From the IMG/VR virus record IMGVR_UViG_3300025389_001063: a stretch of 64,000 nucleotides of DNA; one strand, 5' to 3'. Below the pieces are notes generated by a model, which saw nothing but the letters and a program-made list of their open reading frames with translations, was not told the DNA's origin and ran no database searches. This DNA is from a virus. Its lineage: Duplodnaviria; Caudoviricetes. This document shows, one piece after another, positions 44,393 to 56,470 of this stretch (the first letter of the stretch is position 1; every line of letters begins with the position of its first letter). The translations under genes were made by a program, and so were the position numbers.

Positions 44393-47062
44393 ATGTCATA
44401 TGTGGATGGAATTTTTGATAGAACAAATGATCAAATTAAAATTGTTGAGAGAGTAGACGGCAAGAGACATTATAAAGAATATCCTGCTCGTTATGTCTTT
44501 TATTATCCAGATGCTAAAGGTAAGTACGAAAGCGTATATGGAGAAAAGTTAAGTCGTGTTAGTGCTCGCAATCAGAAGGACTTTCACAAAGAACTTAAAA
44601 TACATTCTGGAAAAAGAATGTACGAAAGCGACATTAATCCGATTTTCAAATGTTTAGAAGAACACTACTTAAACATAGATGCCCCGGAGTTACACATTGC
44701 GTTTTTCGATATTGAGACTGATTTTGATCCTGAGCGAGGCTTTGCTGATCCTAGTGACCCTTTTATGGGTATCACTGCCATTTCGGTACATCTTAAATGG
44801 TTAAACAGATTAGTAACACTTGCTGTTCCTCCTAAAGGATTAACAGTAGAACAAGCACAAGAACAATGTGCTGAATTTGAAGATTGTTTTATATTTGCTC
44901 GTGAAGCAGATATGCTAGAAACATTCCTTGATTTAATAGATGACGCAGATATATTAAGTGGTTGGAATTCGGAAGGTTACGACGTTCCTTATACTGTTAA
45001 TCGAGTAGCAAGAGTCTTAAGCAAAGAAGATACTAGACGTTTCTGCTTGTGGGATCAATTTCCCAAGAAACGAGAATTTGAAAAGTACGGACGTCAAATG
45101 GTTACATATGACTTTGTTGGTCGCGTACATCTTGACAGTCTTGAACTTTATAGAAAATACACTTATGAAGAAAGACATACATATCGACTTGATGCTATCG
45201 GTGAGATGGAAATAGGCGAACGTAAAACTGTTTACGAAGGCACACTTGATCAACTTTATAACAATGACTTTAGAACATTTATTGAATATAACAGGCAAGA
45301 CGTCGCACTACTTAACAAACTTGATGACAAATTAAGATTTATTGATTTGAGTAACGAACTTGCTCATGCTAACACCGTTCTACTTCAAACAACTATGGGT
45401 GCCGTTGCTGTTACTGAACAAGCAATTATAAATGAGGCTCATCGTCGAGGACTAATTGTTCCTAATCGTCCAAAGCGTGATGAAAGCGAAAATACACAAG
45501 CCGCAGGTGCTTATGTCGCTTATCCAAAAAAGGGATTACACGATTGGATCGGCAGTATGGATATTAACTCACTGTATCCAAGTGCTATTAGAGCATTGAA
45601 CATGGCTCCAGAAACAATCATTGGTCAGTTACGTCCGGAACATACAGACGAATACATCGAAACACAAATGAGATTACATAAGAAATCATTTGCTGCGGCA
45701 TGGGAAGGTCGATTCTCTACTTTTGAATATGATTGGGTTATGGATAAAGACAAAGGCAAAGAAATTACTGTTGATTGGGAGAATGGTGAATCAACTGTAA
45801 TGAGTGGAGCAGAGATTTATAAACTAATCTTTGATAGTCATAATCCTTGGATGATTACTTCCAATGGCACAATCTTTACACATGAGTTTGAAGGTGTTAT
45901 TCCTGGACTTCTAAAGCGTTGGTATGCCGAACGTAAAGAACTTCAGGCAAAGGCCAAAGAAGCATTAAAAGCAGATAACAAAGTAGAACATGCTTTTTGG
46001 GATAAGCGTCAGTTAGTTAAAAAGATTAACTTGAACAGTTTGTATGGTGCTATTCTTAATGCTGGTTGTCGTTTCTTCGATAAGCGTATTGGACAATCAA
46101 CTACTCTTGTTGGTAGGCAGGTTGCTAAACATATGGCATCAAAAGTTAATGAGATTGTAGCAGGAGAATATGATCACATTGGTAAGGCTATTATATATGG
46201 TGATACCGACTCTGTTTATTTCTCAGCATACAATGTCTTAAAGAAAGATATTGAGGCTGGAAACATTCCCTGGAGTAAAGATAATGTTATTAGCCTCTAT
46301 GATCAAATATCAGATGAAGTAAATGGAACATTCTCCAACTTCATGCTAAATGCCTTCCACTGTCCAAAGAGTCGCGGTGAAGTTATTAAGGCTGGTCGTG
46401 AAATTGTTGCCAGCAAAGGCTTGTTCATTACTAAAAAGCGTTATGCTGTTCTTTATTATGATTCAGAAGGCAAGAGATATGACGTTGATGATAAACCAGG
46501 CAAGATCAAGGCAATGGGCTTAGACCTTAAGAGATCAGATACCCCAGAGTTCATGCAAGACTTTTTAAGTAAGATCCTTGATCGCGTTCTAAATAATGCC
46601 AAGGAGGAAGAAATTCTTGATATGATTACACAATTTAGAATAGACTTTAAGAGTAGACCTGGATGGGAAAAAGGTTCTCCAAAGAGAGCAAACAATATTA
46701 CCGAATATATGAAGAAAGAACAAAAGGCCGGTAAGGCAAATATGCCGGGACATGTTAGAGCAAGTCTTAATTGGAATACTCTTAAGAAGATGTATAACGA
46801 TAACTATTCCATTACTATCAGTGACGGTTCAAAAGTTATTGTTTGTAAACTAAAACATAACCCAATGGGCTTTACATCTGTTGCGTATCCAGTTGACGAG
46901 CTAAGACTACCACAGTGGTTTAAAGATTTACCATTTGATGATGCTAGTATGGAAGCAGCAATTATCGATGCTAAACTAGACAACCTTATTGGCGTTCTAG
47001 AATGGAATCTTACGAGTACATCTGAATCTACAACGTTCAATAAATTATTTGCTTTTGACTGA
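44393..47062 (+). CDS. Family B DNA polymerase (T4 gp43-like)
   Basis: Exo I FDIETD; DINSLYPS; KINLNSLYG; YGDTDS; KKRY. Confidence 0.95.
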   Translation: MSYVDGIFDRTNDQIKIVERVDGKRHYKEYPARYVFYYPDAKGKYESVYGEKLSRVSARNQKDFHKELKIHSGKRMYESDINPIFKCLEEHYLNIDAPELHIAFFDIETDFDPERGFADPSDPFMGITAISVHLKWLNRLVTLAVPPKGLTVEQAQEQCAEFEDCFIFAREADMLETFLDLIDDADILSGWNSEGYDVPYTVNRVARVLSKEDTRRFCLWDQFPKKREFEKYGRQMVTYDFVGRVHLDSLELYRKYTYEERHTYRLDAIGEMEIGERKTVYEGTLDQLYNNDFRTFIEYNRQDVALLNKLDDKLRFIDLSNELAHANTVLLQTTMGAVAVTEQAIINEAHRRGLIVPNRPKRDESENTQAAGAYVAYPKKGLHDWIGSMDINSLYPSAIRALNMAPETIIGQLRPEHTDEYIETQMRLHKKSFAAAWEGRFSTFEYDWVMDKDKGKEITVDWENGESTVMSGAEIYKLIFDSHNPWMITSNGTIFTHEFEGVIPGLLKRWYAERKELQAKAKEALKADNKVEHAFWDKRQLVKKINLNSLYGAILNAGCRFFDKRIGQSTTLVGRQVAKHMASKVNEIVAGEYDHIGKAIIYGDTDSVYFSAYNVLKKDIEAGNIPWSKDNVISLYDQISDEVNGTFSNFMLNAFHCPKSRGEVIKAGREIVASKGLFITKKRYAVLYYDSEGKRYDVDDKPGKIKAMGLDLKRSDTPEFMQDFLSKILDRVLNNAKEEEILDMITQFRIDFKSRPGWEKGSPKRANNITEYMKKEQKAGKANMPGHVRASLNWNTLKKMYNDNYSITISDGSKVIVCKLKHNPMGFTSVAYPVDELRLPQWFKDLPFDDASMEAAIIDAKLDNLIGVLEWNLTSTSESTTFNKLFAFD

Positions 47063-47077: not shown

Positions 47078-47097
47078 ATGAACATATGGAGAATGAA

Positions 47098-47829
47098 ATG
47101 TTAGACTTTTTAAGAGATTTAGTTCAACACACCCACTCACTAGGTGTTATTGACCTTGTAAAGATTACAGGCACAAAAGATTCAACTGCTATTGACGCAA
47201 TGGCAGAGAATAGAACAGTTATTGTTCAGGCAGAAACAAAGAATCCAGTTAAGGAAGTAAGTGGTACATTTGGTATGCCTAACCTTAACAAGTTAGACTT
47301 ACACTTAAAGAATCCAGAGTATAAAGAAGGTGCTCATATTGAAGTTGTTTGGGATAAGCGTAACGGAGAAGATACACCAGTTGAAATACTTTTTGAAAAT
47401 GCTGCTGGCGACTTTAAGAATGAATATAAGTTAATGGGTCAAGCACTTATCAATGAGAAACTAAAGACTGTTAAGTTCAAGGGTGCTACTTGGCAAGTTG
47501 AGTTTGAACCAAGCGTTACAAGTATTGCTCGTATGAAATTACAGGCTGCGGCACATACAGAGGAATCAGTATTCCTTGTTAAGACAGACAACAATGATCT
47601 TAAAGTGTTCTTTGGTGATGCTAGTACACACGAAGGTAGTTTTGTATTCCAACCAGGTATTACAGGTAAACTAAAACAGAATTGGTCTTATCCAATTGCT
47701 CAATTTATTAGCATACTTGGCCTAGGTGGCGACAAGACTATTAAGTTCAGTGACGACGGTGTTGCTCTTATTACTGTTGACAGTGGACTTGCTGTTTACA
47801 ACTATTACATTCCGGCACAAACAAAATGA
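47098..47829 (+). CDS. Putative sliding clamp (gp45/PCNA-like)
   Basis: About 245 aa, directly after the polymerase, alpha/beta pattern; clamp loader present in window; alternative start at 47086. Confidence 0.6.
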   Translation: MLDFLRDLVQHTHSLGVIDLVKITGTKDSTAIDAMAENRTVIVQAETKNPVKEVSGTFGMPNLNKLDLHLKNPEYKEGAHIEVVWDKRNGEDTPVEILFENAAGDFKNEYKLMGQALINEKLKTVKFKGATWQVEFEPSVTSIARMKLQAAAHTEESVFLVKTDNNDLKVFFGDASTHEGSFVFQPGITGKLKQNWSYPIAQFISILGLGGDKTIKFSDDGVALITVDSGLAVYNYYIPAQTK

Positions 47830-47933
47830 CCGAATTCGAGTTGCTTTATATCGGAACACCTATTGTATTAATAGTACTAGCAGGTATTATTATTTTAATA
47901 TGCTATCTGCTAGAGAAAAAAGGACTTTTATGA
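47826..47933 (+). CDS. 35-aa single-TM membrane peptide (not in the ORF track)
   Basis: MTEFELLYIGTPIVLIVLAGIIILICYLLEKKGLL; ATGA overlaps with both neighbours. Confidence 0.6.
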   Translation: MTEFELLYIGTPIVLIVLAGIIILICYLLEKKGLL

Positions 47934-49471
47934 ACGAGAATTTAACGGCAACACAGAATGACTATGCGGTTTTCCTACCTGCCGTTAGTACTTTCTATTC
48001 AACATTTATAGGGAAACAACGATTTAGCAACTATGTAGATCCTACTCGAATACCAGCAGGATTTACTAACGGTGTCGAAGGATTAAACTTCTTTGATCCA
48101 GAAAAAGGTTACTTCTATTACAAGTGGGGATTGTATTCAGCAGGTCATGCTGAATTAGATCTCAATAAGATTAGCGAAAAGGAAGATATGTTTCGCAAAC
48201 GACCACGCAACGGTGATAGCATTGTTGTTGGTGATAGTGGAGGCTTCCAGATCGGTAAAGGCGTTTGGGAAGGTGATTGGAAAGATCCTAATTGTCCTAA
48301 GGCCAAGAAGAAAAGAGAACAAGTCCTTGCTTGGATGGATGCTCTTATGGACTATGGAATGATTCTCGATATTCCGGCATGGGTTGCTCGTAGTCCGGCA
48401 GGTGCTAAAGCAACTGGTATTAGTTCTTATCAAGAAGCAGTTAATGCTACATTCATTAACAATGATTATTTTATTAGAAACAGAAATGGGAGTTGTAAGT
48501 TTTTAAATGTTTTACAAGGTGAAAACCATACCGAGGCCGACGATTGGTACGATCGTCAAAAAAAGTATAGCGATCCTAAAGTATATCCAAATGAACATTT
48601 CAACGGGTGGTCTATGGGTGGTCAAAATATGTGCGATGTTCATCTTGTTTTACGTCGTCTTGTGGCTCTTCGTTATGATGGGCTAATTGAAAAAGGTAAA
48701 CAAGATTGGATGCATTTTCTTGGTACAAGTAAACTAGAGTGGGCATGTTTATTAACTGATATACAACGAGCAGTTCGTAAATATCACAACGAGAACTTTA
48801 CTGTTTCTTTTGATTGTGCTAGTCCTTTTCTTGCTACTGCTAATGGACAAGTTTATATTCAGACAGAAACTCCACATCATAAGAAGTGGACATATCGAAT
48901 GGTTCCTTCTATAGATGATAAAAAATATGCTACAGATACAAGAACATTCCGTGATGCTGTTTTACAAGATGGTATTTTTAAGAACTTTACCGACTCTCCA
49001 ATTAGTTCACGTTCTTTAGTCAAAGATGTTTGTATCTATAAGCCAGGCGATCTAAATAAGAATGGTAAGGAAGGTAGAACTTCTTGGGATAGTTTTTCAT
49101 ATGCCATTCAAATGGGACATAATGTATGGATGCATATTAATTCGGTTCAAGAAGCAAATAGACAATATGATAATAAAGTGATTCCAAACATGTTATTTAT
49201 GGACGGATTTGATAGGCTTTATTTCAAAGATGTAGTGGATAGAATCTTTGAGACTGATGATCGCGACAAAGCATTAGAACTCGTCGACGATTATAACAAG
49301 TTCTGGATTAGCATTATCGGAACAAGAGGTGCTACTGGAAAAAAGACCGTCAATTCTTCAACATTCTTTAATAAACATTTCGACGTTGAAGAAACGCCGG
49401 TCGAACATCATCTAGATGACAGCGGTCTAGATGAAAGTAATCTTGAAAAGTTAGAGGAGTCTGTAGAATGA
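47930..49471 (+). CDS. TGT-fold guanine transglycosylase (DpdA-like)
   Basis: GDSGGFQ, MILDIP, NVLQG, GWSMGG, HFLG, SFDCASP, GHN motifs; no CxCxxC zinc site; true start likely 47930. Confidence 0.8.
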   Translation: MNENLTATQNDYAVFLPAVSTFYSTFIGKQRFSNYVDPTRIPAGFTNGVEGLNFFDPEKGYFYYKWGLYSAGHAELDLNKISEKEDMFRKRPRNGDSIVVGDSGGFQIGKGVWEGDWKDPNCPKAKKKREQVLAWMDALMDYGMILDIPAWVARSPAGAKATGISSYQEAVNATFINNDYFIRNRNGSCKFLNVLQGENHTEADDWYDRQKKYSDPKVYPNEHFNGWSMGGQNMCDVHLVLRRLVALRYDGLIEKGKQDWMHFLGTSKLEWACLLTDIQRAVRKYHNENFTVSFDCASPFLATANGQVYIQTETPHHKKWTYRMVPSIDDKKYATDTRTFRDAVLQDGIFKNFTDSPISSRSLVKDVCIYKPGDLNKNGKEGRTSWDSFSYAIQMGHNVWMHINSVQEANRQYDNKVIPNMLFMDGFDRLYFKDVVDRIFETDDRDKALELVDDYNKFWISIIGTRGATGKKTVNSSTFFNKHFDVEETPVEHHLDDSGLDESNLEKLEESVE

Positions 49472-49671
49472 CTGATGACAAACTAAATTCACATTACAGA
49501 GTAGTAAAAGCAAGACATGACGAACTTGACAAAAAGATCGAGGAAGCATATAATCACTATGTTAGTGATGACGAACTTCATAAGATGAAAGTTGAGAAAC
49601 TACATCTTAAAGAAGAAATGGCTAAAATTGAAGCAATTAAAAGTGGTTTTCACGGATATCAAGCAACCTAA
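49468..49671 (+). CDS. DUF465/YdcH-like coiled-coil protein
   Basis: RHDELDKKIEE...LHKMKVEKLHLKEEM. Confidence 0.55.
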   Translation: MTDDKLNSHYRVVKARHDELDKKIEEAYNHYVSDDELHKMKVEKLHLKEEMAKIEAIKSGFHGYQAT

Positions 49672-49680
49672 GGAAATAAA

Positions 49681-50274
49681 ATGAAGAGAGACTACGACAA
49701 TGGTGTTAAAGATGATGTCAAATTCTTTGTTGGCACGGAAATAGAGCATACTCCTGCTTACGAAAAGAAAACACTCTTTGTCGTAGGCTTACAGAATCCA
49801 GATAAGGTTGCTAAACTTGCTCAAGCAATGGATATAGATCATATCTATCTCGGTGCTAATCATAGTTTTAATAATACTAATCTTATGTACTGGGAGGCAG
49901 TTATTTTAGAATTACTTAAAAGAGACTTTTGGGTAACTTTAGATTTTGATTACAAATATTATGAAGATATTATGGATAGTCTTGCTTATTGGAATGAACA
50001 TGATAGATTTATTTCACAAATTAGTATAAAATTACCTTATACATCACTACTTAATTACAATACCTGTATTAAGATTGACGACAAAGACTTTAGAGCAACT
50101 AATCCGGGTGTATGGGTACATCATTTACACGACTTACAGGATCGTAAAAAGTTTACAGATTGGTCACAATATGGCAAAGACACTCCAATAGTTGTAGATG
50201 AACCTAACGAAACTGCTACAACTGTTATAGAAGATGAAATTTTAATTGTGGAGACAGTATACAATGGCGCCTGA
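49681..50274 (+). CDS. Hypothetical protein within the deazaguanine locus
   Basis: 197 aa; HIYLGANHSF, WVTLD and KIDDKDF blocks; AAGGA SD. Confidence 0.6.
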   Translation: MKRDYDNGVKDDVKFFVGTEIEHTPAYEKKTLFVVGLQNPDKVAKLAQAMDIDHIYLGANHSFNNTNLMYWEAVILELLKRDFWVTLDFDYKYYEDIMDSLAYWNEHDRFISQISIKLPYTSLLNYNTCIKIDDKDFRATNPGVWVHHLHDLQDRKKFTDWSQYGKDTPIVVDEPNETATTVIEDEILIVETVYNGA

Positions 50275-50626
50275 TAGTGGAATGATATGGGTTACTTTTC
50301 GTAAGGAAGGTATTCACAAATATCCAGCAGCATTAGATGATCCTAATCTTGCTGATGTTAGTTTTCTCGGTTATCCACATAGACATATGTTCCATTTCAA
50401 AGTTTGGATTGAAGTATTTCATGAAGACCGAGAAATTGAATTTATTCAATTTAAGCGTTGGCTAGAAAGTTTGTATAGCGGAACACTCGAATTAAGTTAC
50501 AAAAGTTGCGAAATGATTGCACAAGATTTATATCTTCAAATTAAACAAAAATATCCAGGGCGTGAGACTTGGATTGAAGTTAGTGAGGATGGAGAAAATG
50601 GCTGTTTCAAACAATGGAAAAACTAA
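50264..50626 (+). CDS. QueD-like T-fold protein with an atypical LxxxHRHxF motif
   Basis: FLGYPHRHMF instead of CxxxHGH; SCEMIA; VSEDGENG. Confidence 0.7.
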   Translation: MAPDSGMIWVTFRKEGIHKYPAALDDPNLADVSFLGYPHRHMFHFKVWIEVFHEDREIEFIQFKRWLESLYSGTLELSYKSCEMIAQDLYLQIKQKYPGRETWIEVSEDGENGCFKQWKN

Positions 50627-50639
50627 GGAGAACAATATA

Positions 50640-50846
50640 ATGGCGTTTAGTAGATATCCTGATATTAATAAAATCTTTGATGAATTAGATGCTTATCTAG
50701 CATTTTGTAAAGAGTTTGGTTACGTGTATAATGAGAAGGACTTATATAATTTCAAGACACCATATGGTCAATTTGATCGTTGGAAGCGAGGCCAAAGAAT
50801 AACAAACAATTGGAGAGAAGATAGATTCAATGTTGTATCTAGTTGA
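50640..50846 (+). CDS. Small hypothetical protein
   Basis: Start MAFSRY with AAGGAG. Confidence 0.6.
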   Translation: MAFSRYPDINKIFDELDAYLAFCKEFGYVYNEKDLYNFKTPYGQFDRWKRGQRITNNWREDRFNVVSS

Positions 50847-51912
50847 TTTGGAACCAGTCGATACTCGTTATACTTCACAATGGAGAAAATATCTACCTCT
50901 TCAATTAAGAGATGCAGGTATTGAAACAACCATTATACCAGGAGGACATGTTCCACAAACTTTAACTCCAGGTGCTTTTTTAAACTTTGCCGGTACTAAT
51001 AATTACAAAAGCCAACAAATGTTAAGAATAAGTCAATTATTCTCAAATGGATCTATCAAGGACGGTGATTATTTCTTATATACCGATGCTTGGAACCCTA
51101 CCGTTATACAATTAAAGTATATGGCAGAATTACTAGGTATTAAGATTAAAATTGGTGGTATGTGGCATGCTGGTAGTTATGATCCTCAAGACTTTCTAGG
51201 TAGGCTCATAGGTGATGTTCCTTGGGTAAGAAATGCTGAGGCATCTATGTTTCATTGCTATGATCATAATTTCTTTGCTACCGAATTTCATCTCAAAATG
51301 TTTCTTAAAGAACTGTTTGGCGAAGATGACATTGAGGGATGGAAAGAATATTATCCAGGAACATTGCTTGTCGGATGGCCGATGGAATATCTTTACGAAT
51401 TATTAGCACCATATATGCCTGTTCCTAAAGAAAATATAATAGTATTTCCTCATAGACTAGCACCAGAAAAACAGCCTGAGATATTTGATGATCTTGCAAT
51501 GTCTATGGAAGATTATGAATACAAGTGGATTAAAGCACAAGAAACTGTATTAACAAAAAATGAATATTATAGATTGTTAGGTCAAAGTAAAATAGTCTTT
51601 AGTGCTAATTTACAAGAAACATTAGGTATAAGTGTATATGAAGGTGCAATGGTTGGATCATTCCCGTTAATGCCAAATAGATTAAGTTATAAAGAAATGT
51701 GGCCGGCAGATTCTCTGTATCCAAGTGAATGGACAGAAAGTTGGGATTCATACCTAGAACATAAAGACAAACTAATAAATGTTATACACCGAATAATGAA
51801 TTCGTATGATATACCAATGTTAGTTGAATCTAGAAGAATTGCCGAAGAAGTTGGTGAAAAATTCTTTAACGGTAAAGAGATTTATAAGACTATAATTGAC
51901 TCTACAACCTAA
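50830..51912 (+). CDS. GT-B glycosyltransferase embedded in the deazaguanine locus
   Basis: FPHRLAPEKQP and QETLGISVYEG (E-x7-E) motifs. Confidence 0.75.
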   Translation: MLYLVDLEPVDTRYTSQWRKYLPLQLRDAGIETTIIPGGHVPQTLTPGAFLNFAGTNNYKSQQMLRISQLFSNGSIKDGDYFLYTDAWNPTVIQLKYMAELLGIKIKIGGMWHAGSYDPQDFLGRLIGDVPWVRNAEASMFHCYDHNFFATEFHLKMFLKELFGEDDIEGWKEYYPGTLLVGWPMEYLYELLAPYMPVPKENIIVFPHRLAPEKQPEIFDDLAMSMEDYEYKWIKAQETVLTKNEYYRLLGQSKIVFSANLQETLGISVYEGAMVGSFPLMPNRLSYKEMWPADSLYPSEWTESWDSYLEHKDKLINVIHRIMNSYDIPMLVESRRIAEEVGEKFFNGKEIYKTIIDSTT

Positions 51913-51924
51913 ATAGTATACAAT
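51896..51924 (+). promoter_or_regulatory. Sigma70-like promoter for folE
   Basis: TTGACT-N17-TACAAT. Confidence 0.65.
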
Positions 51925-51964
51925 TAACAAATCGCAATCCACTGCGTTAACATCGGAGAAAGAA

Positions 51965-52657
51965 ATGACAATGACTAACTGTACTTGCAATGGCACAGCC
52001 GCTGCTATTGCTCAACGTCTAAAAGATAAAGGCGTTAGATTTTTTTGTAATGATAATATTAGTGAATATATCTTTCCTGAAGAACACGATCTGCTTCTAG
52101 CAGAAGTCGAAGAAAACATGAAGAAGGTTCTCGAAAGTCTTGTCATTGATACAGAAAACGATCATAATACAAACGATACTGCTCATCGTGTTGCTAAAAT
52201 GTTTATGAATGAAATCTTTGCTGGTCGGTATGAGCCACAACCAAAGATTACAGCATTTCCAAATGCTAATTCTTATGATGAACTTTATGTAACTGGTCCC
52301 ATTACTATTCGTTCAACTTGTGCCCATCATTTTCAAGGTATTAGAGGTAGAGCATATATTGGAGTATTTCCAGGTAAAAATGTTATCGGATTAAGTAAAT
52401 TTAATCGTATCACAGATTGGATTGCTAGTCGTCCACAAATACAAGAAGAAATGACTGTACAAGTTGCTGATGCAATTGAAAAAGCAACAAAAGCAGAAGG
52501 TGTTGCTGTTCTCATACAAGCAGAACATTTGTGTATGACACATCGGGGTGTAAAAGAACACGAGAGTGATATGACAACTTCTATTATGCGTGGTGCTTTT
52601 AGATCTGATCCACATTTGAAACAAGAATTTTTTAATATAGTAGCGAGGATGAAATAA
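51965..52657 (+). CDS. folE: GTP cyclohydrolase I
   Basis: STCAHHF, GLSKFNRI, RPQIQEEMT, HLCMTHRGV. Confidence 0.95.
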   Translation: MTMTNCTCNGTAAAIAQRLKDKGVRFFCNDNISEYIFPEEHDLLLAEVEENMKKVLESLVIDTENDHNTNDTAHRVAKMFMNEIFAGRYEPQPKITAFPNANSYDELYVTGPITIRSTCAHHFQGIRGRAYIGVFPGKNVIGLSKFNRITDWIASRPQIQEEMTVQVADAIEKATKAEGVAVLIQAEHLCMTHRGVKEHESDMTTSIMRGAFRSDPHLKQEFFNIVARMK

Positions 52658-53122
52658 ATGTCATGGCTAAAAGGTATGCTTGAAAATAGTAGTACAAGTA
52701 CAAGTAATGGAACATATGGAGTAGTAGGTGCTACAACTCCTTCCACGTTACCATATACATCTCCAACAACAAATATTGTAGGACCAACTCCTACTACTGT
52801 TCCTAATGGTGGATATTACAGTGGAAGTGGTGGCGGAAATATATCTACTACAACTTATCCATATGTTACAACAGGTACAGGTGGATTACAAAATAATTAT
52901 GGTAATAATATTCATATTAGTGGTACAAATCCTACATTAGCGACAGATAAAGTAAAAATTAATCTTAATGAATTAGGTGAATTAATATCTGTAATAAAAG
53001 AACGTTTATTAATCATTACACCAAATTTTGAAAAGATGGAAAAATATCAAGCATTAAAGAAAGCATACGATCATTATAAATTATTAGAATCGATGCTTGG
53101 AGACGAAGGTGACAAAAAATAA
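52658..53122 (+). CDS. Hypothetical protein: low-complexity T/G/S N-terminus and helical C-terminus
   Basis: C-terminal YQALKKAYDHYK. Confidence 0.55.
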   Translation: MSWLKGMLENSSTSTSNGTYGVVGATTPSTLPYTSPTTNIVGPTPTTVPNGGYYSGSGGGNISTTTYPYVTTGTGGLQNNYGNNIHISGTNPTLATDKVKINLNELGELISVIKERLLIITPNFEKMEKYQALKKAYDHYKLLESMLGDEGDKK

Positions 53123-53597
53123 TAGTATATGGGGTAAAGGTAAAAACGGTGAAGATCTTTGTATAACATCAGACATGCTAGATAGTTGGCAAAAACATGT
53201 TGATCAAATTAATTTGGAAAAAACAATGATTAATACAGGAACAATTACAATACCAAGTAACAATACTATAGATCTTAGTAATATCACTATTGATGCTAGT
53301 AGCAGTAACAATATGTATTACACTAATAGTGATGGAACAATAAGCACTATTACATTATCACCTCCAAGTGCTAGTAATACTTCTTCCACTTATACAATAG
53401 ACACCGAAAGATATTGGGATACTCACAGTGATTTTTTTCGACAAATGCGAGAATTTGAAGACATTATGCCTTCCTTGACAAAAGTCGAAGAAATGTGTAG
53501 TATGTATCCATCACTAGATAAAGCCTTTGAAAATTTCAAAGCCATTTATAATCTAGTTAAAGATGATTACGAGGCAAGAAAAAACAATGATACCTAA
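53097..53597 (+). CDS. Hypothetical protein, probable paralog of 52658
   Basis: T/S/N-rich middle; C-terminal YPSLDKAFENFK. Confidence 0.55.
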   Translation: METKVTKNNSIWGKGKNGEDLCITSDMLDSWQKHVDQINLEKTMINTGTITIPSNNTIDLSNITIDASSSNNMYYTNSDGTISTITLSPPSASNTSSTYTIDTERYWDTHSDFFRQMREFEDIMPSLTKVEEMCSMYPSLDKAFENFKAIYNLVKDDYEARKNNDT

Positions 53598-54084
53598 GAC
53601 ATATATCTCATGGCAAGACGTTCAAGGACATGTAAACAATATAGCAGTAAAACTATATCGAGATAATTGGACACCTGATTACATTGTAGGTATACATAGT
53701 GGTGGATCCATTCCTGCTGTTATGCTCTCTAAAATGTTAGGTATTAAATCATATAGTCTCGATGTTAGACTTCGCGACAACGACGAAGATCCAGAAACTA
53801 ATGCTTGGATGAGTGAAGATGCTTTTAATGGTATAAAGATTCTAGTTGTAGACGATATCAACGACAGTGGTGCTACTATTAATTGGATTAAAAAAGATTG
53901 GAAAGATAGTTCTTTGCCTTATGATATTAAATGGGATACTATATTTGGAGATAATGTAAAATTTGCTACAATGATTAATAATCTATCTAGTAATTCGACT
54001 GTAGATTATTACTCAACTGAGATTAATAAAGCAGAAAAAGACGAATGGATTGTTTTTCCTTGGGAAGATTTTTGGAGTAGATAA
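53587..54084 (+). CDS. Type I phosphoribosyltransferase (xanthine/guanine PRT-like)
   Basis: ILVVDDINDSGAT PRPP-binding loop; WIVFPWE C-terminus. Confidence 0.85.
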   Translation: MIPKTYISWQDVQGHVNNIAVKLYRDNWTPDYIVGIHSGGSIPAVMLSKMLGIKSYSLDVRLRDNDEDPETNAWMSEDAFNGIKILVVDDINDSGATINWIKKDWKDSSLPYDIKWDTIFGDNVKFATMINNLSSNSTVDYYSTEINKAEKDEWIVFPWEDFWSR

Positions 54085-54281
54085 TGGATAAGATAGCATA
54101 TTTTCTTTCAATCTTAGCAGGTATAATGTTAATTGTACTAACTGTAACTCATATGTCTCAAGCCAAAAAGTTTCTTGTTGATATTGAAACAGAATTAACA
54201 ACTATTAACAAATCTTTAAAACATTTGAATAGAGATTTTAGTAATTTTCCTCCCAACTTATCTGATCTAGAAAAAAGATAA
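54084..54281 (+). CDS. Small membrane-anchored protein
   Basis: N-terminal hydrophobic helix followed by a coiled coil. Confidence 0.5.
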   Translation: MDKIAYFLSILAGIMLIVLTVTHMSQAKKFLVDIETELTTINKSLKHLNRDFSNFPPNLSDLEKR

Positions 54282-54283
54282 TA

Positions 54284-54312
54284 TTGACATTTACGTTTAG
54301 AAAGCGTATATT
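54284..54312 (+). promoter_or_regulatory. Sigma70-like promoter, leaderless arrangement
   Basis: TTGACA-N17-TATATT, then 6 nt to ATG 54319; no SD. Confidence 0.7.
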
Positions 54313-54318
54313 AATATT

Positions 54319-55170
54319 ATGAAAATCAAAATATCAGAAATCTTTTACAGTCTGCAAGGCGAAGGACAGTATATAGGTGTTCCTAGTATCTTTTTAAGAA
54401 CATTTGGATGTAATTTTACCTGCGGCGGATTTGGAATGCCACGAGGAAAAGTTTCTACTGAAAGAGATGAGATTGCTAAAAAATCTCTCGAATATATTGA
54501 TTATAAAAATTTGCCATTAGTTAGCACAGGTTGTGACAGTTATGCTTCTTGGGATCCTAGATTTAAACATCTATCACCTTTTATGGAAGTCGTAGATATT
54601 GTTGATCGTTTTCAAAAACTACTTCCAGATAGAAAGTTTGGAGAAAAACATTTAATTATTACAGGAGGCGAACCTTTATTAGGTTGGCAACGTTCTTATC
54701 CAGAATTAATTGCTGAGATTTATAATCGAGAAATGAATCTAAAATATTTGACTTTTGAAACTAATGGAACTCAACCATTAGAAGAAAATTTTAAAAAATT
54801 CTTAATCGAGTTAGTTGAAACATTTGGAATAGAAATTACATTTTCAATTAGTTCCAAACTTCCATGTAGTGGTGAAAAGTTTGATGATGCTATTAAACCA
54901 GAAGTTGTAAAAGATTATCTTACTATTCCAAACAGAAGTTATTTCAAATTTGTCATTGCTAATGAACAGGATGCATTAGATGCTCAAGCAGCATTAGGAG
55001 AATATAAGAAAGCAGGAATTGATATTCCAGTTTACTTAATGCCAATCGGTGGTACTAATTCAGTATACGAAATGAATGAAAGACAAGTTGCAGATTATGC
55101 TAGGGATATTGGATATAGGTTTAGTCCACGTATTCAAGTTCCACTATATAAAAATGAATGGGGGACCTAA
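54319..55170 (+). CDS. queE: 7-carboxy-7-deazaguanine synthase (radical SAM)
   Basis: SEIFYSLQGEG, FLRTFGCNFTC...GCDS, ITGGEPL, ETNGT, SPR.Q motifs. Confidence 0.9.
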   Translation: MKIKISEIFYSLQGEGQYIGVPSIFLRTFGCNFTCGGFGMPRGKVSTERDEIAKKSLEYIDYKNLPLVSTGCDSYASWDPRFKHLSPFMEVVDIVDRFQKLLPDRKFGEKHLIITGGEPLLGWQRSYPELIAEIYNREMNLKYLTFETNGTQPLEENFKKFLIELVETFGIEITFSISSKLPCSGEKFDDAIKPEVVKDYLTIPNRSYFKFVIANEQDALDAQAALGEYKKAGIDIPVYLMPIGGTNSVYEMNERQVADYARDIGYRFSPRIQVPLYKNEWGT

Positions 55171-55508
55171 TGGGACTTTGGAATTGGATTTTACACGGTG
55201 CGTTTGAACCAAAAAAAGAAGAACAAGCAGTTGAGCAACCAAAAGTTAAAAAACCAAAATTAACAGAAAAAGAACGTGCTACAAAAAACAAAGAACCATT
55301 TGTACAAGTTCTAGAAACTCATGTTGATCCAAATAATCCAGCAAATGGATACTTTGAATTAGATTGGAACAGTTACTTCATTGACGATTTACGAAAAGCA
55401 GGTTATACTGGTAAAACTGAAGAGGAGATAATTGATCAATGGTTCAAACAATTATGCCAGAACATACTAGCAGAAGAACAAATGAACAAGGTAGTCCGAA
55501 TCACATGA
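55158..55508 (+). CDS. Hypothetical protein
   Basis: 116 aa; GYFELDWN block. Confidence 0.6.
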   Translation: MGDLMGLWNWILHGAFEPKKEEQAVEQPKVKKPKLTEKERATKNKEPFVQVLETHVDPNNPANGYFELDWNSYFIDDLRKAGYTGKTEEEIIDQWFKQLCQNILAEEQMNKVVRIT

Positions 55509-56470
55509 ACTATATAATTGTAGATACTGCTAACACATTTTTTCGAGCCCGACATGTTGTTCGCGGAGATGCTGATATTAAAATAGGAATGGCACTACAT
55601 GTTACATTGGCAAGTATTAAAAAAGCATGGCAAGACTTTAACGGCAATCATGTCGTCTTTTGCTTGGAGGGTCGTTCTTGGCGCAAGGACTATTATCCAC
55701 CTTATAAGCGTAATAGGACAGAGGCTCGCGCCGCTCTAACTGAAAAGGAGGCGGAAGAGGATAAACTTTTCTGGGAAACATTTGATAAGTTTAAAGAATT
55801 TATTATCGAAAAAACTAATTGTACTGTACTTCAAAACGATCAACTTGAGGCTGATGACCTTATTGCAGGATGGATTGAATCTCATCCTAATGACAATCAC
55901 ATTATTATCTCTACTGATTCCGATTTTGTCCAGCTTATTGCTCCAAATGTTAAACAATATCACGGAATTAACGAACACATCATTACAAATGAAGGAACCT
56001 TTACTCTTAAAGGAAAACCGGTTATTGATAATAAAACTAAACAACCCAAAGGAGCAATTGATCCAGAATGGCTTCTTTTTGAAAAGTGTATGCGTGGTGA
56101 CCCGACTGATAATGTCTTTTCAGCCTATCCAAAGGTGCGTAAGAATAAACTTCAAGAAGCTTATGAAGATCGTAGAAATAAAGGTTTTGCATGGAATAAT
56201 CTTATGTTACAGCGTTGGGTTGATCACGAAGGCGCTGAACATCGTGTACTCGATGATTATGAACGCAATCGCAGACTTATTGATCTTAAATCTCAACCGG
56301 ATGAAATTAAACAAATCATCCAAGATGTTGTTAGAACAAATAGTATTCCTAAGAATGTTGAACAAGTAGGAATAAGATTAATGAAATTCTGCGGATTATT
56401 TGATCTTGTTAAAATTTCAGAACAAGCACAACAATATGTTGAACCCTTAAATGCAAAATATCCGGAGTAA
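55505..56470 (+). CDS. 5'-3' exonuclease / T4 RNase H-like flap endonuclease
   Basis: IVDTANTFFRA, SWRKDYYPPYKRNR, EADDLI, STDSDFVQL, GDPTDNV. Confidence 0.9.
   Translation: MNYIIVDTANTFFRARHVVRGDADIKIGMALHVTLASIKKAWQDFNGNHVVFCLEGRSWRKDYYPPYKRNRTEARAALTEKEAEEDKLFWETFDKFKEFIIEKTNCTVLQNDQLEADDLIAGWIESHPNDNHIIISTDSDFVQLIAPNVKQYHGINEHIITNEGTFTLKGKPVIDNKTKQPKGAIDPEWLLFEKCMRGDPTDNVFSAYPKVRKNKLQEAYEDRRNKGFAWNNLMLQRWVDHEGAEHRVLDDYERNRRLIDLKSQPDEIKQIIQDVVRTNSIPKNVEQVGIRLMKFCGLFDLVKISEQAQQYVEPLNAKYPE

Follow-up and report, generated by a model that had tools for sequence, protein, structure and literature searches.

Does a giant, uncultured phage (IMG/VR record IMGVR_UViG_3300025389_001063) place a sugar on a 7-deazaguanine in its DNA? 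The question is raised by a group of genes, all on the + strand and adjoining the phage DNA polymerase, in which a glycosyltransferase (GT) lies among genes of 7-deazaguanine synthesis (Table 1). The window, i.e., the whole stretch of DNA that was analysed, comprises 64,000 nt of a 107-kb record; because the estimated completeness of that record is only 28%, the absence of a gene from the whole genome is not demonstrable with it. A preliminary description had named a DpdA-like transglycosylase, a QueD-like protein, a GT-B glycosyltransferase, FolE, a phosphoribosyltransferase (PRTase) and QueE, directly 3' of the polymerase and clamp, and both the genes and their position were confirmed. As a whole, the locus is read tentatively here, at somewhat under an even chance, as a replisome-linked DpdL-type 7-deazaguanine DNA-modification module with an added tailoring step.

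Table 1. Genes of the module and its upstream border, in positions of the 64,000-nt window
Feature	Position	Strand	Evidence or remark
Family B DNA polymerase (context; upstream module border)	44393..47062	+	PF00136 E 1.8e-39; PF03104 E 8e-17
Sliding clamp, PCNA-like	47086..47829	+	phrog_12062 E 1.6e-30
DpdA-like guanine transglycosylase, divergent TGT fold with C-terminal extension	47930..49471	+	513 aa
Small DUF465 protein; start overlaps DpdA stop codon	49468..49671	+	PF04325 E 3.7e-9
p197, conserved uncharacterised protein between DpdA and DpdL	49681..50274	+	197 aa
DpdL (QueD paralogue, proposed CDG decarboxylase)	50264..50626	+	T-fold; LGYPHRHMF
Small ORF, ~68 aa, start uncertain; end overlaps GT start	50640..50846	+	ORF call
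GT4-like GT-B glycosyltransferase, predicted retaining and NDP-sugar dependent	50830..51912	+	AF2 and PDB fold matches
FolE, GTP cyclohydrolase I	51965..52657	+	PF01227 E 9.8e-51; NCBIfam FolE E 1e-53 to 9e-46
Two low-complexity ORFs (154 and 166 aa; overlap 53097-53122)	52658..53597	+	Ser/Thr/Gly/Asn-rich N-termini, then helical C-terminal tails
Type I PRTase, xanthine/guanine-PRT-like	53563..54084	+	PF00156 E 9.2e-13; phrog_8995 E 6.6e-23
Small hydrophobic protein, 65 aa	54084..54281	+	weak phrog_2911 match, E 8.5e-4
QueE, 7-carboxy-7-deazaguanine synthase, radical SAM	54319..55170	+	phrog_2076 E 7.4e-50

The polymerase is found at this same place in PAC2 and Phosso, as well as in 62 of 80 IMG/VR loci, and the clamp shares 31% identity (E 3e-39) with the annotated proliferating cell nuclear antigen (PCNA) of PAC2. 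The DUF465 protein is probably not core to the module, as it was detected in no more than 4 of 80 related loci. For the small ORF preceding the GT, 37 of 80 loci have a tblastn match located between their DpdL and GT genes, and no family match (Pfam, PHROG) was found; neither low-complexity ORF matched a family, and the 166-aa ORF was found again in 12 of 80 loci.

The preliminary description took the locus, with its embedded GT and no QueC, as a candidate for an undescribed guanine hypermodification. By its sequence, the atypical QueD is DpdL: its LGYPHRHMF is an exact instance of the LxxxHRHxF signature of DpdL from Cellulophaga phage phiST, it matches phrog_17812 (E 5.3e-36), it is 60% identical to ACP17 DpdL (E 2e-37) and 34.5% to phiST DpdL (E 2e-9), and H39, E83 and E108 are common to it and canonical QueD proteins. 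A DpdL route to 2'-deoxy-7-deazaguanosine (dDG) without QueC has been published, in which phiST DpdL is the proposed 7-carboxy-7-deazaguanine (CDG) decarboxylase; phiST DNA contains 100% dDG, and E. coli carrying dpdA and dpdL made no dDG (Cui, Hutinet et al., NAR 2023; PMC10516641). With the DpdL signature present, the missing QueC agrees with this route and hence, like its combination with an atypical QueD, is not new. The inserted base, proposed earlier to be CDG or its decarboxylation product, is likely the latter, and the locus is supported as a 7-deazaguanine DNA-modification module without canonical QueC.

The reported lack of queC, queF and canonical queD holds within the window. Six-frame family searches over the whole 107-kb record found no QueF. 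They detected a canonical PTPS/QueD (55.9 bits, E 2.7e-16) encoded on the same strand, 13.9 kb upstream of the first base of the window. The only QueC candidate was a sub-threshold match (10.5 bits, E 0.025) to a divergent PP-loop gene of QueC-like type, which lies in a tail-linked locus ~3.8 kb beyond the window. No QueC scored above the cut-off in five complete genomes carrying the module. The PP-loop gene could send CDG to another product. Five NCBIfam QueE models matched the QueE protein in part, and its C31, C35, C72, E15 and TGGEP are invariant and common to the QueE proteins of phiST, ACP17, BUDD, BUCT-ZZ01, BCSR5 and PAC2.

The DpdA-like protein had no Pfam, PHROG or NCBIfam match, and its assignment comes from fold and catalytic motifs. 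The best 50 PDB matches of its AF2 model (pLDDT 67.7) were all tRNA-guanine transglycosylases (TGTs; best E 1.5e-7), and a broader DpdA profile, when run against the PDB, matched TGT chains exclusively (E 0.86-1.9), aligning DSGGFQ with residues 99-107 of Z. mobilis TGT and MxLD with the Asp156 motif. Residues D102, S103, G105, Q107, D147, G197, H262, G265 and D295 are invariant among homologues down to 16% identity, and the length of full-length homologues (511-523 aa) supports the ATG at 47930 as the start.

Sequence and model together identify the GT as a bona fide GT4-like enzyme. Its AF2 model (pLDDT 87.9) has GT4/GT5 enzymes as best PDB matches (glycogen synthase, BshA, MshA, PimB', LmbT) and the ACP17 GT as best viral fold match (TM 0.86); E263-x7-E271 (EX7E), R209 and K214 are invariant, and PF00534 was matched by seven of eight family members (best E 6.8e-12). 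The protein is acidic (pI 4.98), which, together with its likeness to GTs with small-molecule acceptors, does not suggest direct DNA binding.

That the GT belongs to the module is supported by its linkage to DpdL across phages. Among 50,697 phage records, GT occurs in 23, DpdL in 28 and both in 18 (Fisher p 6e-58, computed at record level). The GT lies 0-3 kb from DpdL in six of the seven cultured lineages with a GT homologue (PA5oct-likes, Phosso, ACP17, BUDD/X1, BUCT-ZZ01 and BCSR5), a count of only seven lineages in which adjacent genes need not share a substrate. IMG/VR loci seeded with DpdL contain the GT in 76 of 80 cases, in the order DpdA-p197-DpdL-GT-FolE; seeded with the BUCT-type GT, 75 of 80 contain DpdL, as do 4 of 4 seeded with the BUDD type. 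The GT begins right at the DpdA stop, or overlaps it, in ACP17 and PAC2. Furthermore, two GT classes with 21-24% mutual identity occupy one slot, while identity across the flanking PolB, DpdA and DpdL remains 55-75%. A T4-like cyanophage and the window's clade have BUCT-type GTs that are 69-74% identical, although the DpdL proteins of the two share only 38%. This repeated replacement by a distantly related GT4 suggests, by analogy with T-even glucosyltransferases, that the sugar or linkage diversifies under host-defence pressure.

Judged by sequence conservation, the xanthine/guanine-type PRTase and p197 are, like the GT, conserved members of the module. The PRTase has the PRPP motif VVDDINDSGAT and, as best NCBIfam match, xanthine PRTase (E 3.6e-15, below cut-off); it is also present in the PAC2 and BUCT-ZZ01 clusters and within reach in 36 of 80 loci (window's clade), while ACP17, BUDD and BCSR5 have the module with no PRTase in the cluster. 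A p197 gene is found in 72 of 80 IMG/VR loci; in ACP17, a homologue (33% identity, E 3e-20) immediately precedes DpdA. The p197 family comprises 810 clusters at 50% identity, its invariant residues are acidic and aromatic, and it had no Pfam or PDB match, profile searches included.

Two phage systems come closest. The phiST cluster likewise has FolE, QueD, QueE, an LxxxHRHxF DpdL and a TGT-superfamily transglycosylase (DpdA3), lacks canonical QueC and adjoins replication genes; unlike the window, it has MazG-like and P-loop genes instead of GT, PRTase and p197, and its 259-aa DpdA3 has no detectable sequence likeness to the window DpdA (hhalign probability 1.5%). The PA5oct-like Pseudomonas jumbo phages (Wroclawvirus, Arenbergviridae) share the gene set in near-identical order between polymerase/clamp and a 5'-3' exonuclease (PolB-PCNA-x-DpdA-GT-DpdL-x-epimerase-PRTase-QueE), with protein identities of 34% for DpdA, 43% for GT, 58% for DpdL and 32% for QueE. 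PA5oct differs in having the GT before DpdL, an extra short NAD-epimerase-like gene, no p197 homologue or FolE in the cluster, and HFH where the window DpdL reads HRH. PA5oct DNA, reported to carry a modified G, resists cutting at G-containing restriction sites and is attacked by nucleases sensing hypermodified G (PMC12191111).

Other comparisons concern single enzymes. HuiG of huimycin synthesis (Kutzneria albida), a GT4-type enzyme, uses the 2-amino group of a 7-deazapurine as acceptor for GlcNAc (PMC7439116; 10.64898/2026.04.15.718813). Likened by description, HuiG (PF13439; UDP-GlcNAc donor) resembles the phage GT in type and in its FolE/QueD/QueE cluster, but it belongs to an actinomycete secondary-metabolite pathway with QueC and an O-methyltransferase and gives rise to a free nucleoside-like metabolite rather than to modified DNA. 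PRTases of the TubE/ToyH type (tubercidin, toyocamycin) are, like that of the window, PF00156 proteins encoded with FolE/QueD/QueE, and the tubercidin pathway also uses CDG without QueC; they build a ribonucleotide antibiotic, whereas the window PRTase resembles xanthine/guanine salvage enzymes and lies beside a base-exchange enzyme that frees guanine. T4 alpha- and beta-glucosyltransferases are GT-B enzymes that add sugar post-replicatively to 5-hydroxymethylcytosine in DNA; their genes are variable and pass between related phages. They share the GT-B fold and the gene exchange with the window GT, but their acceptor is the side-chain hydroxyl of a pyrimidine, they were absent from its 50 best PDB and 50 best viral fold matches, and a hydroxymethylase was not found here. 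QTMAN/GTDC1, also a GT4-type GT-B enzyme, glycosylates a 7-deazaguanine derivative in nucleic acid, its acceptor being the cyclopentenediol of queuosine in tRNA; its fold match to the window GT (E 5e-8, 16% identity) is no better than many other GT4 matches.

From these data a pathway can be proposed. In keeping with their established family roles, FolE, the upstream QueD and QueE would turn GTP into CDG, from which DpdL, as has been proposed for phiST, would strip the carboxyl to give 7-deazaguanine. The divergent TGT-fold DpdA, by its fold, catalytic motifs and gene context, would then swap DNA guanine for the deazapurine, and the GT may transfer a hexose or N-acetylhexosamine from an NDP-sugar onto it, either at the 2-amino group of the free base, in the manner of HuiG, or once the base is in DNA. 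The PRTase would most simply recycle the released guanine to GMP, and p197 would be a helper with no role assigned. The T4 glucosyl-hydroxymethylcytosine analogy drawn earlier is not directly transferable, because 7-deazaguanine lacks a hydroxyl on a side chain; this would leave N2, O6 or a ring carbon as acceptor, and we know of no DNA glycosyltransferase using these. The idea of a sugar on the deazapurine nevertheless has strong comparative support, by sequence and analogy, in the linkage, the cassette swap, the lack of a ThyA-type hydroxymethylase in three complete relatives with the module, which makes hmC or hmU an unlikely GT target, and the HuiG precedent; we regard it as plausible, with a probability approaching one half.

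The strongest alternative, less probable but to be taken seriously, is that the base is plain dDG as in phiST, with the GT a passenger that acts on something else, such as a glycan of the host envelope, a protein of phage or host, or a small metabolite. Since phiST attains 100% dDG without a GT (PMC10516641), the enzyme is dispensable for the core pathway; in addition, it is acidic, its nearest folds use sugars, lipids and small molecules, and in Xanthomonas phage PhiXhv-12 a distant homologue has GlmS and a BshB-like deacetylase as neighbours, DpdL being absent. A passenger, however, would not be expected to stay beside DpdL or DpdA in six unrelated lineages and 76 of 80 loci, to give way to a distantly related GT4 in the identical slot, or to abut the DpdA stop as in ACP17 and PAC2.

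Two further readings are each unlikely. The GT might act on a free deazapurine that never enters DNA (a huimycin-like antimetabolite, storage or export form), or the sugar might be lost before or during exchange. The free-base substrate of HuiG and the acidic, small-molecule-like GT are compatible with this, and TGT-type pockets, which make tight contact with the 2-amino group, may not accommodate a base glycosylated at N2. A soluble product would bring no obvious gain to a lytic phage, the module is located among replication genes, and the DpdA is so divergent, with so large an extension, that a TGT-like pocket cannot be assumed. With similarly low probability, the PRTase and PRPP might form a 7-deaza-GMP analogue that is reduced, phosphorylated and incorporated by the polymerase, with DpdA in a minor or repair-like role. 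Retention of the PRTase in the cluster (36 of 80 loci of the window's clade, PAC2, BUCT-ZZ01), the QueC-free tubercidin route from CDG with a PRTase, the adjoining polymerase and clamp, and the MazG-like NTP pyrophosphohydrolase and P-loop protein of phiST favour such a nucleotide route, but DpdA keeps its TGT catalytic residues unchanged throughout the family, all known phage 7-deazaguanines are, in the published view, inserted post-replication, the ACP17, BUDD and BCSR5 modules lack an in-cluster PRTase, and the PRTase most resembles salvage enzymes. Finally, that the TGT-fold enzyme targets phage or host tRNA and the GT glycosylates a queuosine-like base, as QTMAN does, is very improbable: although tRNA-queuosine alpha-mannosyltransferase ranks tenth among the Swiss-Prot fold matches with the top identity in the list (16%), QTMAN_N (PF12038) was not detected in the window GT or five complete relatives, the locus lies within a replication module, PA5oct virion DNA is itself restriction-resistant (PMC12191111) and phiST, a DpdL phage, has dDG in its DNA (PMC10516641).

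If the proposed glycosylation occurs, virion DNA of this phage would bear a sugar-carrying 7-deazaguanine that blocks restriction. As the GT accompanies the deazaguanine gene set in many unrelated phages, the DNA of this phage may carry a sugar-bearing purine of a kind for which no description was found in the literature, an idea that is testable in cultured relatives such as PA5oct.

The deazaguanine genes form a tight, partly overlapping row on the plus strand, downstream of the genes for a family B polymerase and a PCNA-like clamp, and ORF and family searches recovered in it every part that the preliminary description had named. Within its 107,488-bp IMG/VR viral record, the window corresponds to positions 8368-72367 read on the reverse strand; its GC content is 30-43%. 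The record's estimated completeness of 28% points to a jumbo phage of about 350 kb, and metagenomic contigs as long as 356 kb encode close homologues of window proteins. The two low-complexity ORFs between FolE and the phosphoribosyltransferase (PRTase) have N-terminal parts rich in Ser, Thr, Gly and Asn and similar helical C-terminal tails, and the second of them recurs in 12 of 80 related loci. A promoter and terminator scan yielded 36 sites against 40 expected, no overall excess over chance; the sites include a perfect sigma-70 consensus, TTGACA-17-TATAAT, 5' of the gene for p197, a conserved 197-aa protein (49526-49554), and near-perfect ones just 5' of FolE (51896-51924) and QueE (54284-54312). 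The polymerase gene is a single ORF here; in PAC2, a PA5oct-like Pseudomonas phage, a Hef-like homing endonuclease gene splits the DNA polymerase gene (L003:2608-7834).

Genes of the replisome-linked deazaguanine row and its flanks (window coordinates)
Feature	Position	Strand	Basis
Family B polymerase	44393-47062	+	PF00136 E 1.8e-39
PCNA-like clamp	47086-47829	+	phrog_12062; 31% identity to PAC2 PCNA
513-aa DpdA-like protein with DSGGFQ	47930-49471	+	TGT fold and motifs
DUF465 protein	49468-49671	+	Family match
p197, 197 aa	49681-50274	+	Conserved family
DpdL, 120-aa T-fold protein	50264-50626	+	LGYPHRHMF
Small ORF	about 50640-50846	+	ORF call
360-aa glycosyltransferase (GT)	50830-51912	+	GT-B fold, motifs
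FolE	51965-52657	+	PF01227 E 9.8e-51
Two low-complexity ORFs	52658-53597	+	Sequence composition
PRTase	53563-54084	+	PF00156 E 9.2e-13
Small hydrophobic ORF	54084-54281	+	ORF call
QueE	54319-55170	+	phrog_2076 E 7.4e-50
5'-3' exonuclease	55439-56470	+	PF02739 E 1.7e-19

DpdL proteins are defined by the motif LxxxHRHxF, which replaces the CxxxHGH of QueD. They have been proposed to decarboxylate 7-carboxy-7-deazaguanine (CDG) to 7-deazaguanine and occur in phages that possess DpdA, FolE, QueD and QueE and lack QueC (Cui, Hutinet et al., NAR 2023, PMC10516641). In the Cellulophaga phage phiST, which encodes DpdL, all G is replaced by 2'-deoxy-7-deazaguanosine (dDG), and heterologous expression of dpdA and dpdL did not reconstitute dDG (PMC10516641). 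The T-fold protein of the window carries this signature, and in tblastn comparisons it is 34.5% identical to phiST CGPG_00067 (E 2e-9) and 60% identical to its counterpart in Acidovorax phage ACP17 (E 2e-37). It can be aligned with QueD proteins, with H39, E83 and E108 common to both. On signature and homology, the "atypical QueD" of the preliminary description is a DpdL, with CDG decarboxylation as its proposed activity. The absence of QueC and the unusual QueD, on which the interest of the preliminary description rested, therefore belong to a published pathway.

DpdA, FolE and QueE lie in the cluster, QueD lies 13.9 kb away, and QueC is not found above cut-off on a record of an estimated 28% completeness. 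Searching for queC and queD beyond the window located a canonical PTPS/QueD gene (PF01242, 55.9 bits) on the same strand, 13.9 kb upstream of window position 1, and a sub-cut-off QueC-like gene of the PP-loop type about 3.8 kb downstream of its end. The QueD stretch (L002:1-1938, equivalent to G000:C1 84744-86681) also holds an adjoining KdsA-like gene of the DAHP-synthase family (PF00793, E 4e-71) and a GT-A or nucleotide-sugar transferase-like gene; in 15 of 80 related loci the QueD gene is instead part of the deazaguanine cluster. The QueD proteins of this phage (L002:1462-1938, minus strand), ACP17 (L004:4795-5271) and phiST (L006:3331-3960) read CxxxHGY and not the textbook CxxxHGH. The QueC-like gene (L001:413-2397) encodes a 301-aa protein that contains SGGIDS as well as SC...CGKCFWC, a motif resembling that of QueC, and scores 10.5 bits against PF06508, where the cut-off is 22. 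Its atlas neighbors are viral clusters whose share of QueC-carrying members is 14-86%. It is convergent with an adjacent radical SAM/SPASM gene in a different, tail-linked locus, and since none of 160 related loci has a copy within 10 kb of DpdL, it is not counted in the module. No homologue was found in the phage collection, and comparison with a PAPS-reductase gene of Xanthomonas phage BUDD revealed no relation. QueC homologues can also form CDG amides, as for roseomycin, and this gene is the remaining caveat to the reading without QueC. QueC above cut-off is absent from five complete genomes that carry the module, and QueF has no match on the 107-kb record.

QueE residues C31, C35, C72, E15 and TGGEP are invariant among seven phage QueE proteins, including that of phiST, and the NCBIfam QueE models match the window protein in part, below their cut-offs. 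With three cluster cysteines and the substrate motifs in place, it qualifies as a radical SAM QueE. In the QueE proteins of DpdL clusters (window, L003, L004, L006, L007, L090 and L091) the cysteine triad is CX3C...C, as distinct from CX3CX2C or CX14CX2C, and the insert between the second and third cysteine varies from 0 to about 36 residues.

The transglycosylase is more divergent. It has no Pfam, PHROG, NCBIfam or PDB-sequence match, and PF01702, the Pfam TGT family, has no match anywhere on the contig. TGT or QTRT1 structures account for all of the 50 best Foldseek PDB matches to its AF2 model (pLDDT 67.7), the lowest E being 1.5e-7 and the TM by target about 0.5, and a broad profile that includes relatives down to 16% identity matches exclusively TGT chains in the PDB, at weak E-values of 0.86-1.9; a TGT (beta/alpha)8 fold is thereby predicted. 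In the Zymomonas mobilis TGT, the catalytic and substrate aspartates are Asp102, Asp156 and Asp280. The profile alignment places DSGGFQ on residues 99-107 of this enzyme and MxLD on its Asp156 motif, and D102, D147 and D295 (in FDCAS) of the phage protein are invariant down to 16% identity. These aspartates are thus present, the equivalent of Asp280 being assigned by motif alone. When compared by hhalign, the clade aligned with phiST DpdA3 at a probability of 1.5% and with the ACP17/BUDD group at 3.0%, neither being significant although the motifs line up. Because it lacks a PF01702 match and is not assigned to DpdA1-4, the protein is interpreted as a divergent branch within the DpdA/TGT superfamily that has no name of its own and would exchange guanine in DNA. 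DpdA and p197 are missing within 10 kb of DpdL in IMG/VR loci L012 and L030, the former also being devoid of GT, and in Sinorhizobium phage Phosso DpdA lies 170 kb from the cluster; DpdA is therefore not required inside it.

The glycosyltransferase has no Pfam, PHROG or NCBIfam match and none in a direct PDB-sequence search. Its AF2 model (pLDDT 87.9, pTM 0.87) has 393 PDB matches at E<=0.001, headed by GT4 and GT5 enzymes, and its best PDB and Swiss-Prot fold matches are the retaining GT4/GT5 enzymes glycogen synthase, BshA, MshA, PimB', LmbT and YqgM, in keeping with a predicted GT-B fold of two Rossmann domains. The closest viral fold match is an ACP17 protein (TM 0.86). In GT4-type enzymes an Arg/Lys pair binds the phosphates of the NDP donor. 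Among 32 homologues the EX7E motif (E263-x7-E271), R209 and K214 do not vary, and the Arg and Lys are kept across eight distant members. PF00534 fails to match the window protein at E<=0.01, and seven of eight family members match it at E<=1, the BUDD homologue at 6.8e-12.

A hydroxymethyl-pyrimidine acceptor is unlikely: in contrast to the T4-type DNA glucosyltransferase system, a ThyA-like hydroxymethylase that would supply hmC or hmU is missing here, as PF00303 matches neither the contig nor the complete ACP17, BUDD and Synechococcus phage BUCT-ZZ01 genomes, so that ThyA-made hydroxymethyl-pyrimidines cannot be the acceptor in those three phages. The tRNA-queuosine alpha-mannosyltransferase (QTMAN) is the tenth Swiss-Prot fold match and the one with the highest identity in the list, 16%. 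Its diagnostic N-terminal domain QTMAN_N (PF12038) is absent, with no match at E<=10 on the contig or in five complete relatives and none in a Pfam scan of eight GTs; the resemblance is one of analogy, not membership.

The case for a deazapurine acceptor comes mainly from the company that the gene keeps. Of the 50,697 records in the phage collection, 28 encode DpdL, 23 a member of the GT family and 18 both (Fisher p 6e-58 at the record level, which overstates independence). In six of the seven cultured lineages with a GT homologue, the gene lies 0-3 kb from DpdL, inside the deazaguanine cluster. The seventh, Xanthomonas phage PhiXhv-12 and its relatives, encodes a GT of 25% identity without DpdL, beside GlmS and a BshB-like deacetylase. 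The PhiXhv-12 row (L009:4789-8023) contains no deazaguanine genes, and these neighbors hint that UDP-GlcNAc may be the ancestral donor of the family. DpdL, for its part, is encoded without a detectable GT by phiST-like phages, by RHph_I1_18 and by a small number of others, so that the dependence is one-way: the GT accompanies DpdL, and DpdL can do without the GT. At least 581 loci in IMG/VR encode DpdL; the best 80 of these keep the order PolB-clamp-DpdA-p197-DpdL-GT-FolE-(PRTase)-(QueD)-QueE-exonuclease, and 76 of these 80 have the GT.

Gene order in cultured phages with DpdL and the GT
Phage	Order
PA5oct-like Pseudomonas jumbo phages	DpdA-GT-DpdL...PRTase-QueE
Sinorhizobium phage Phosso	clamp-x-DpdL-GT-x-FolE...QueE
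Acidovorax phage ACP17	QueD-x-FolE-p197-DpdA-GT-DpdL-QueE
Xanthomonas phages BUDD and X1	FolE...GT-DpdA-DpdL-QueE
Synechococcus phage BUCT-ZZ01	QueE-PRTase-x-QueD-FolE-x-x-DpdL-GT
Burkholderia phage BCSR5	DpdL...GT-x...QueE...FolE

The GT slot of the related IMG/VR loci (L010-L089 and L096-L175) is occupied by two deep GT4 classes, with 47-63% and 21-24% identity to the window GT, while the flanking genes are equally related in both groups (median identity 64-71% for PolB, 43-64% for DpdA and 72-73.5% for DpdL). Identity between the second class and the BUCT-ZZ01 GT is 69-74%, yet this T4-like cyanophage has a DpdL only 38% identical to that of the second-class loci and a DpdA that is not detectably similar. 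Because the GT is so much more conserved than DpdL between them, this gene appears to have moved between distant deazaguanine clusters, landing directly 3' of DpdL each time. The sequences thus indicate recent horizontal exchange of the GT alone, a pattern resembling, by analogy, the diversification of glucosyltransferases in T-even phages. That the GT is a mere passenger gene is hard to reconcile with such repeated landing beside DpdL.

The remaining partner, p197, forms a family of 810 clusters at 50% identity in a full-library HMM search and has no recognizable fold or domain. The protein has no Pfam, PHROG or NCBIfam match, and a 33-sequence profile has none in the PDB or Pfam. Pfam scans of ten longer relatives, p197-DpdL fusion tests and pairwise comparisons with a Phosso "glycosylase" and a PAC2 "epimerase" gave no identification, and a weak atlas match suggestive of a glycoside hydrolase (score 0.91, 139 shared features) was treated as noise. 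Its gene has a fixed position between DpdA and DpdL here and lies directly upstream of DpdA in ACP17. Carrying invariant Glu, Asp, Lys and Trp residues, p197 is a candidate for the missing enzyme of the DpdL route, perhaps acting as an enzyme-like helper.

Published work on related systems offers precedents for several steps. HuiG, a GT4-type enzyme encoded in a FolE/QueD/QueE cluster, transfers GlcNAc onto the 2-amino group of a 7-deazapurine base (PMC7439116; 10.64898/2026.04.15.718813), and the tubercidin pathway uses CDG and a PRTase without QueC. PA5oct, which is syntenic with the module, has restriction-resistant G sites and is subject to restriction by END nucleases, which respond to hypermodified DNA and one of which targets only phages with modified G; its QueE and PTPS genes were noted by the authors, and LC-MS was confined to other phages (PMC12191111). 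The text of the 2023 DpdL paper makes no mention of any glycosyltransferase (PMC10516641), and full-text searches turned up no published description of a glycosylated 7-deazaguanine in DNA.

A pathway that accommodates these genes would begin with the standard conversion of GTP to CDG by FolE, QueD and QueE. DpdL would then convert CDG to 7-deazaguanine, and DpdA would exchange G in DNA for the deazapurine, with the released guanine possibly salvaged by the PRTase to GMP, which would feed FolE again. The GT would move a sugar onto the deazapurine, either as the free base, for which N2 is the sole precedent, or as the inserted nucleotide. 7-Deazaguanine has no hydroxyl side chain, which is a weak point for sugar transfer, as is the acidity of the GT (pI 4.98) for a mechanism of DNA glycosylation. 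The module very probably modifies G in DNA with a 7-deazapurine, and the balance leans toward a role for the GT in the deazapurine pathway. That the final DNA base bears a sugar is possible, though it falls somewhat short of an even chance. The broader proposal is likewise tentative, with doubt slightly outweighing confidence: PA5oct, ACP17, BUDD and X1, BUCT-ZZ01, BCSR5, Phosso and other such phages may replace DNA guanine by a glycosylated 7-deazaguanine with the sugar on N2 or on a ring carbon freed by DpdL; its type would differ between phages as GT cassettes are swapped, an arms-race parallel to the glucosyl-hmC of T-even phages. The embedded GT, PRTase and p197 set this locus apart as a new variant of the known DpdL system, and a sugar-bearing deazaguanine is a serious and readily testable prediction.

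If the sugar is not real, the locus is an ordinary DpdL-type system with three conserved and unexplained partners, which is still a useful finding. If it is, DNA would have its first known purine with a sugar, the founder of a new class of natural bases, the glycosylated purines, and the eight known members of the 7-deazaguanine family would be joined by another. Such a base would also account for the modified G of PA5oct, a phage relevant to therapy, and for the failure of dpdA and dpdL alone to reconstitute dDG. Because the module is very common, with more than 7,600 DpdA-like proteins and 8,000 GT homologues found in protein searches in addition to the many DpdL loci, a real sugar would matter for the evasion of restriction, for defence systems responding to modified G, for efforts to sequence and clone environmental phage DNA and for enzymatic DNA-labelling tools.
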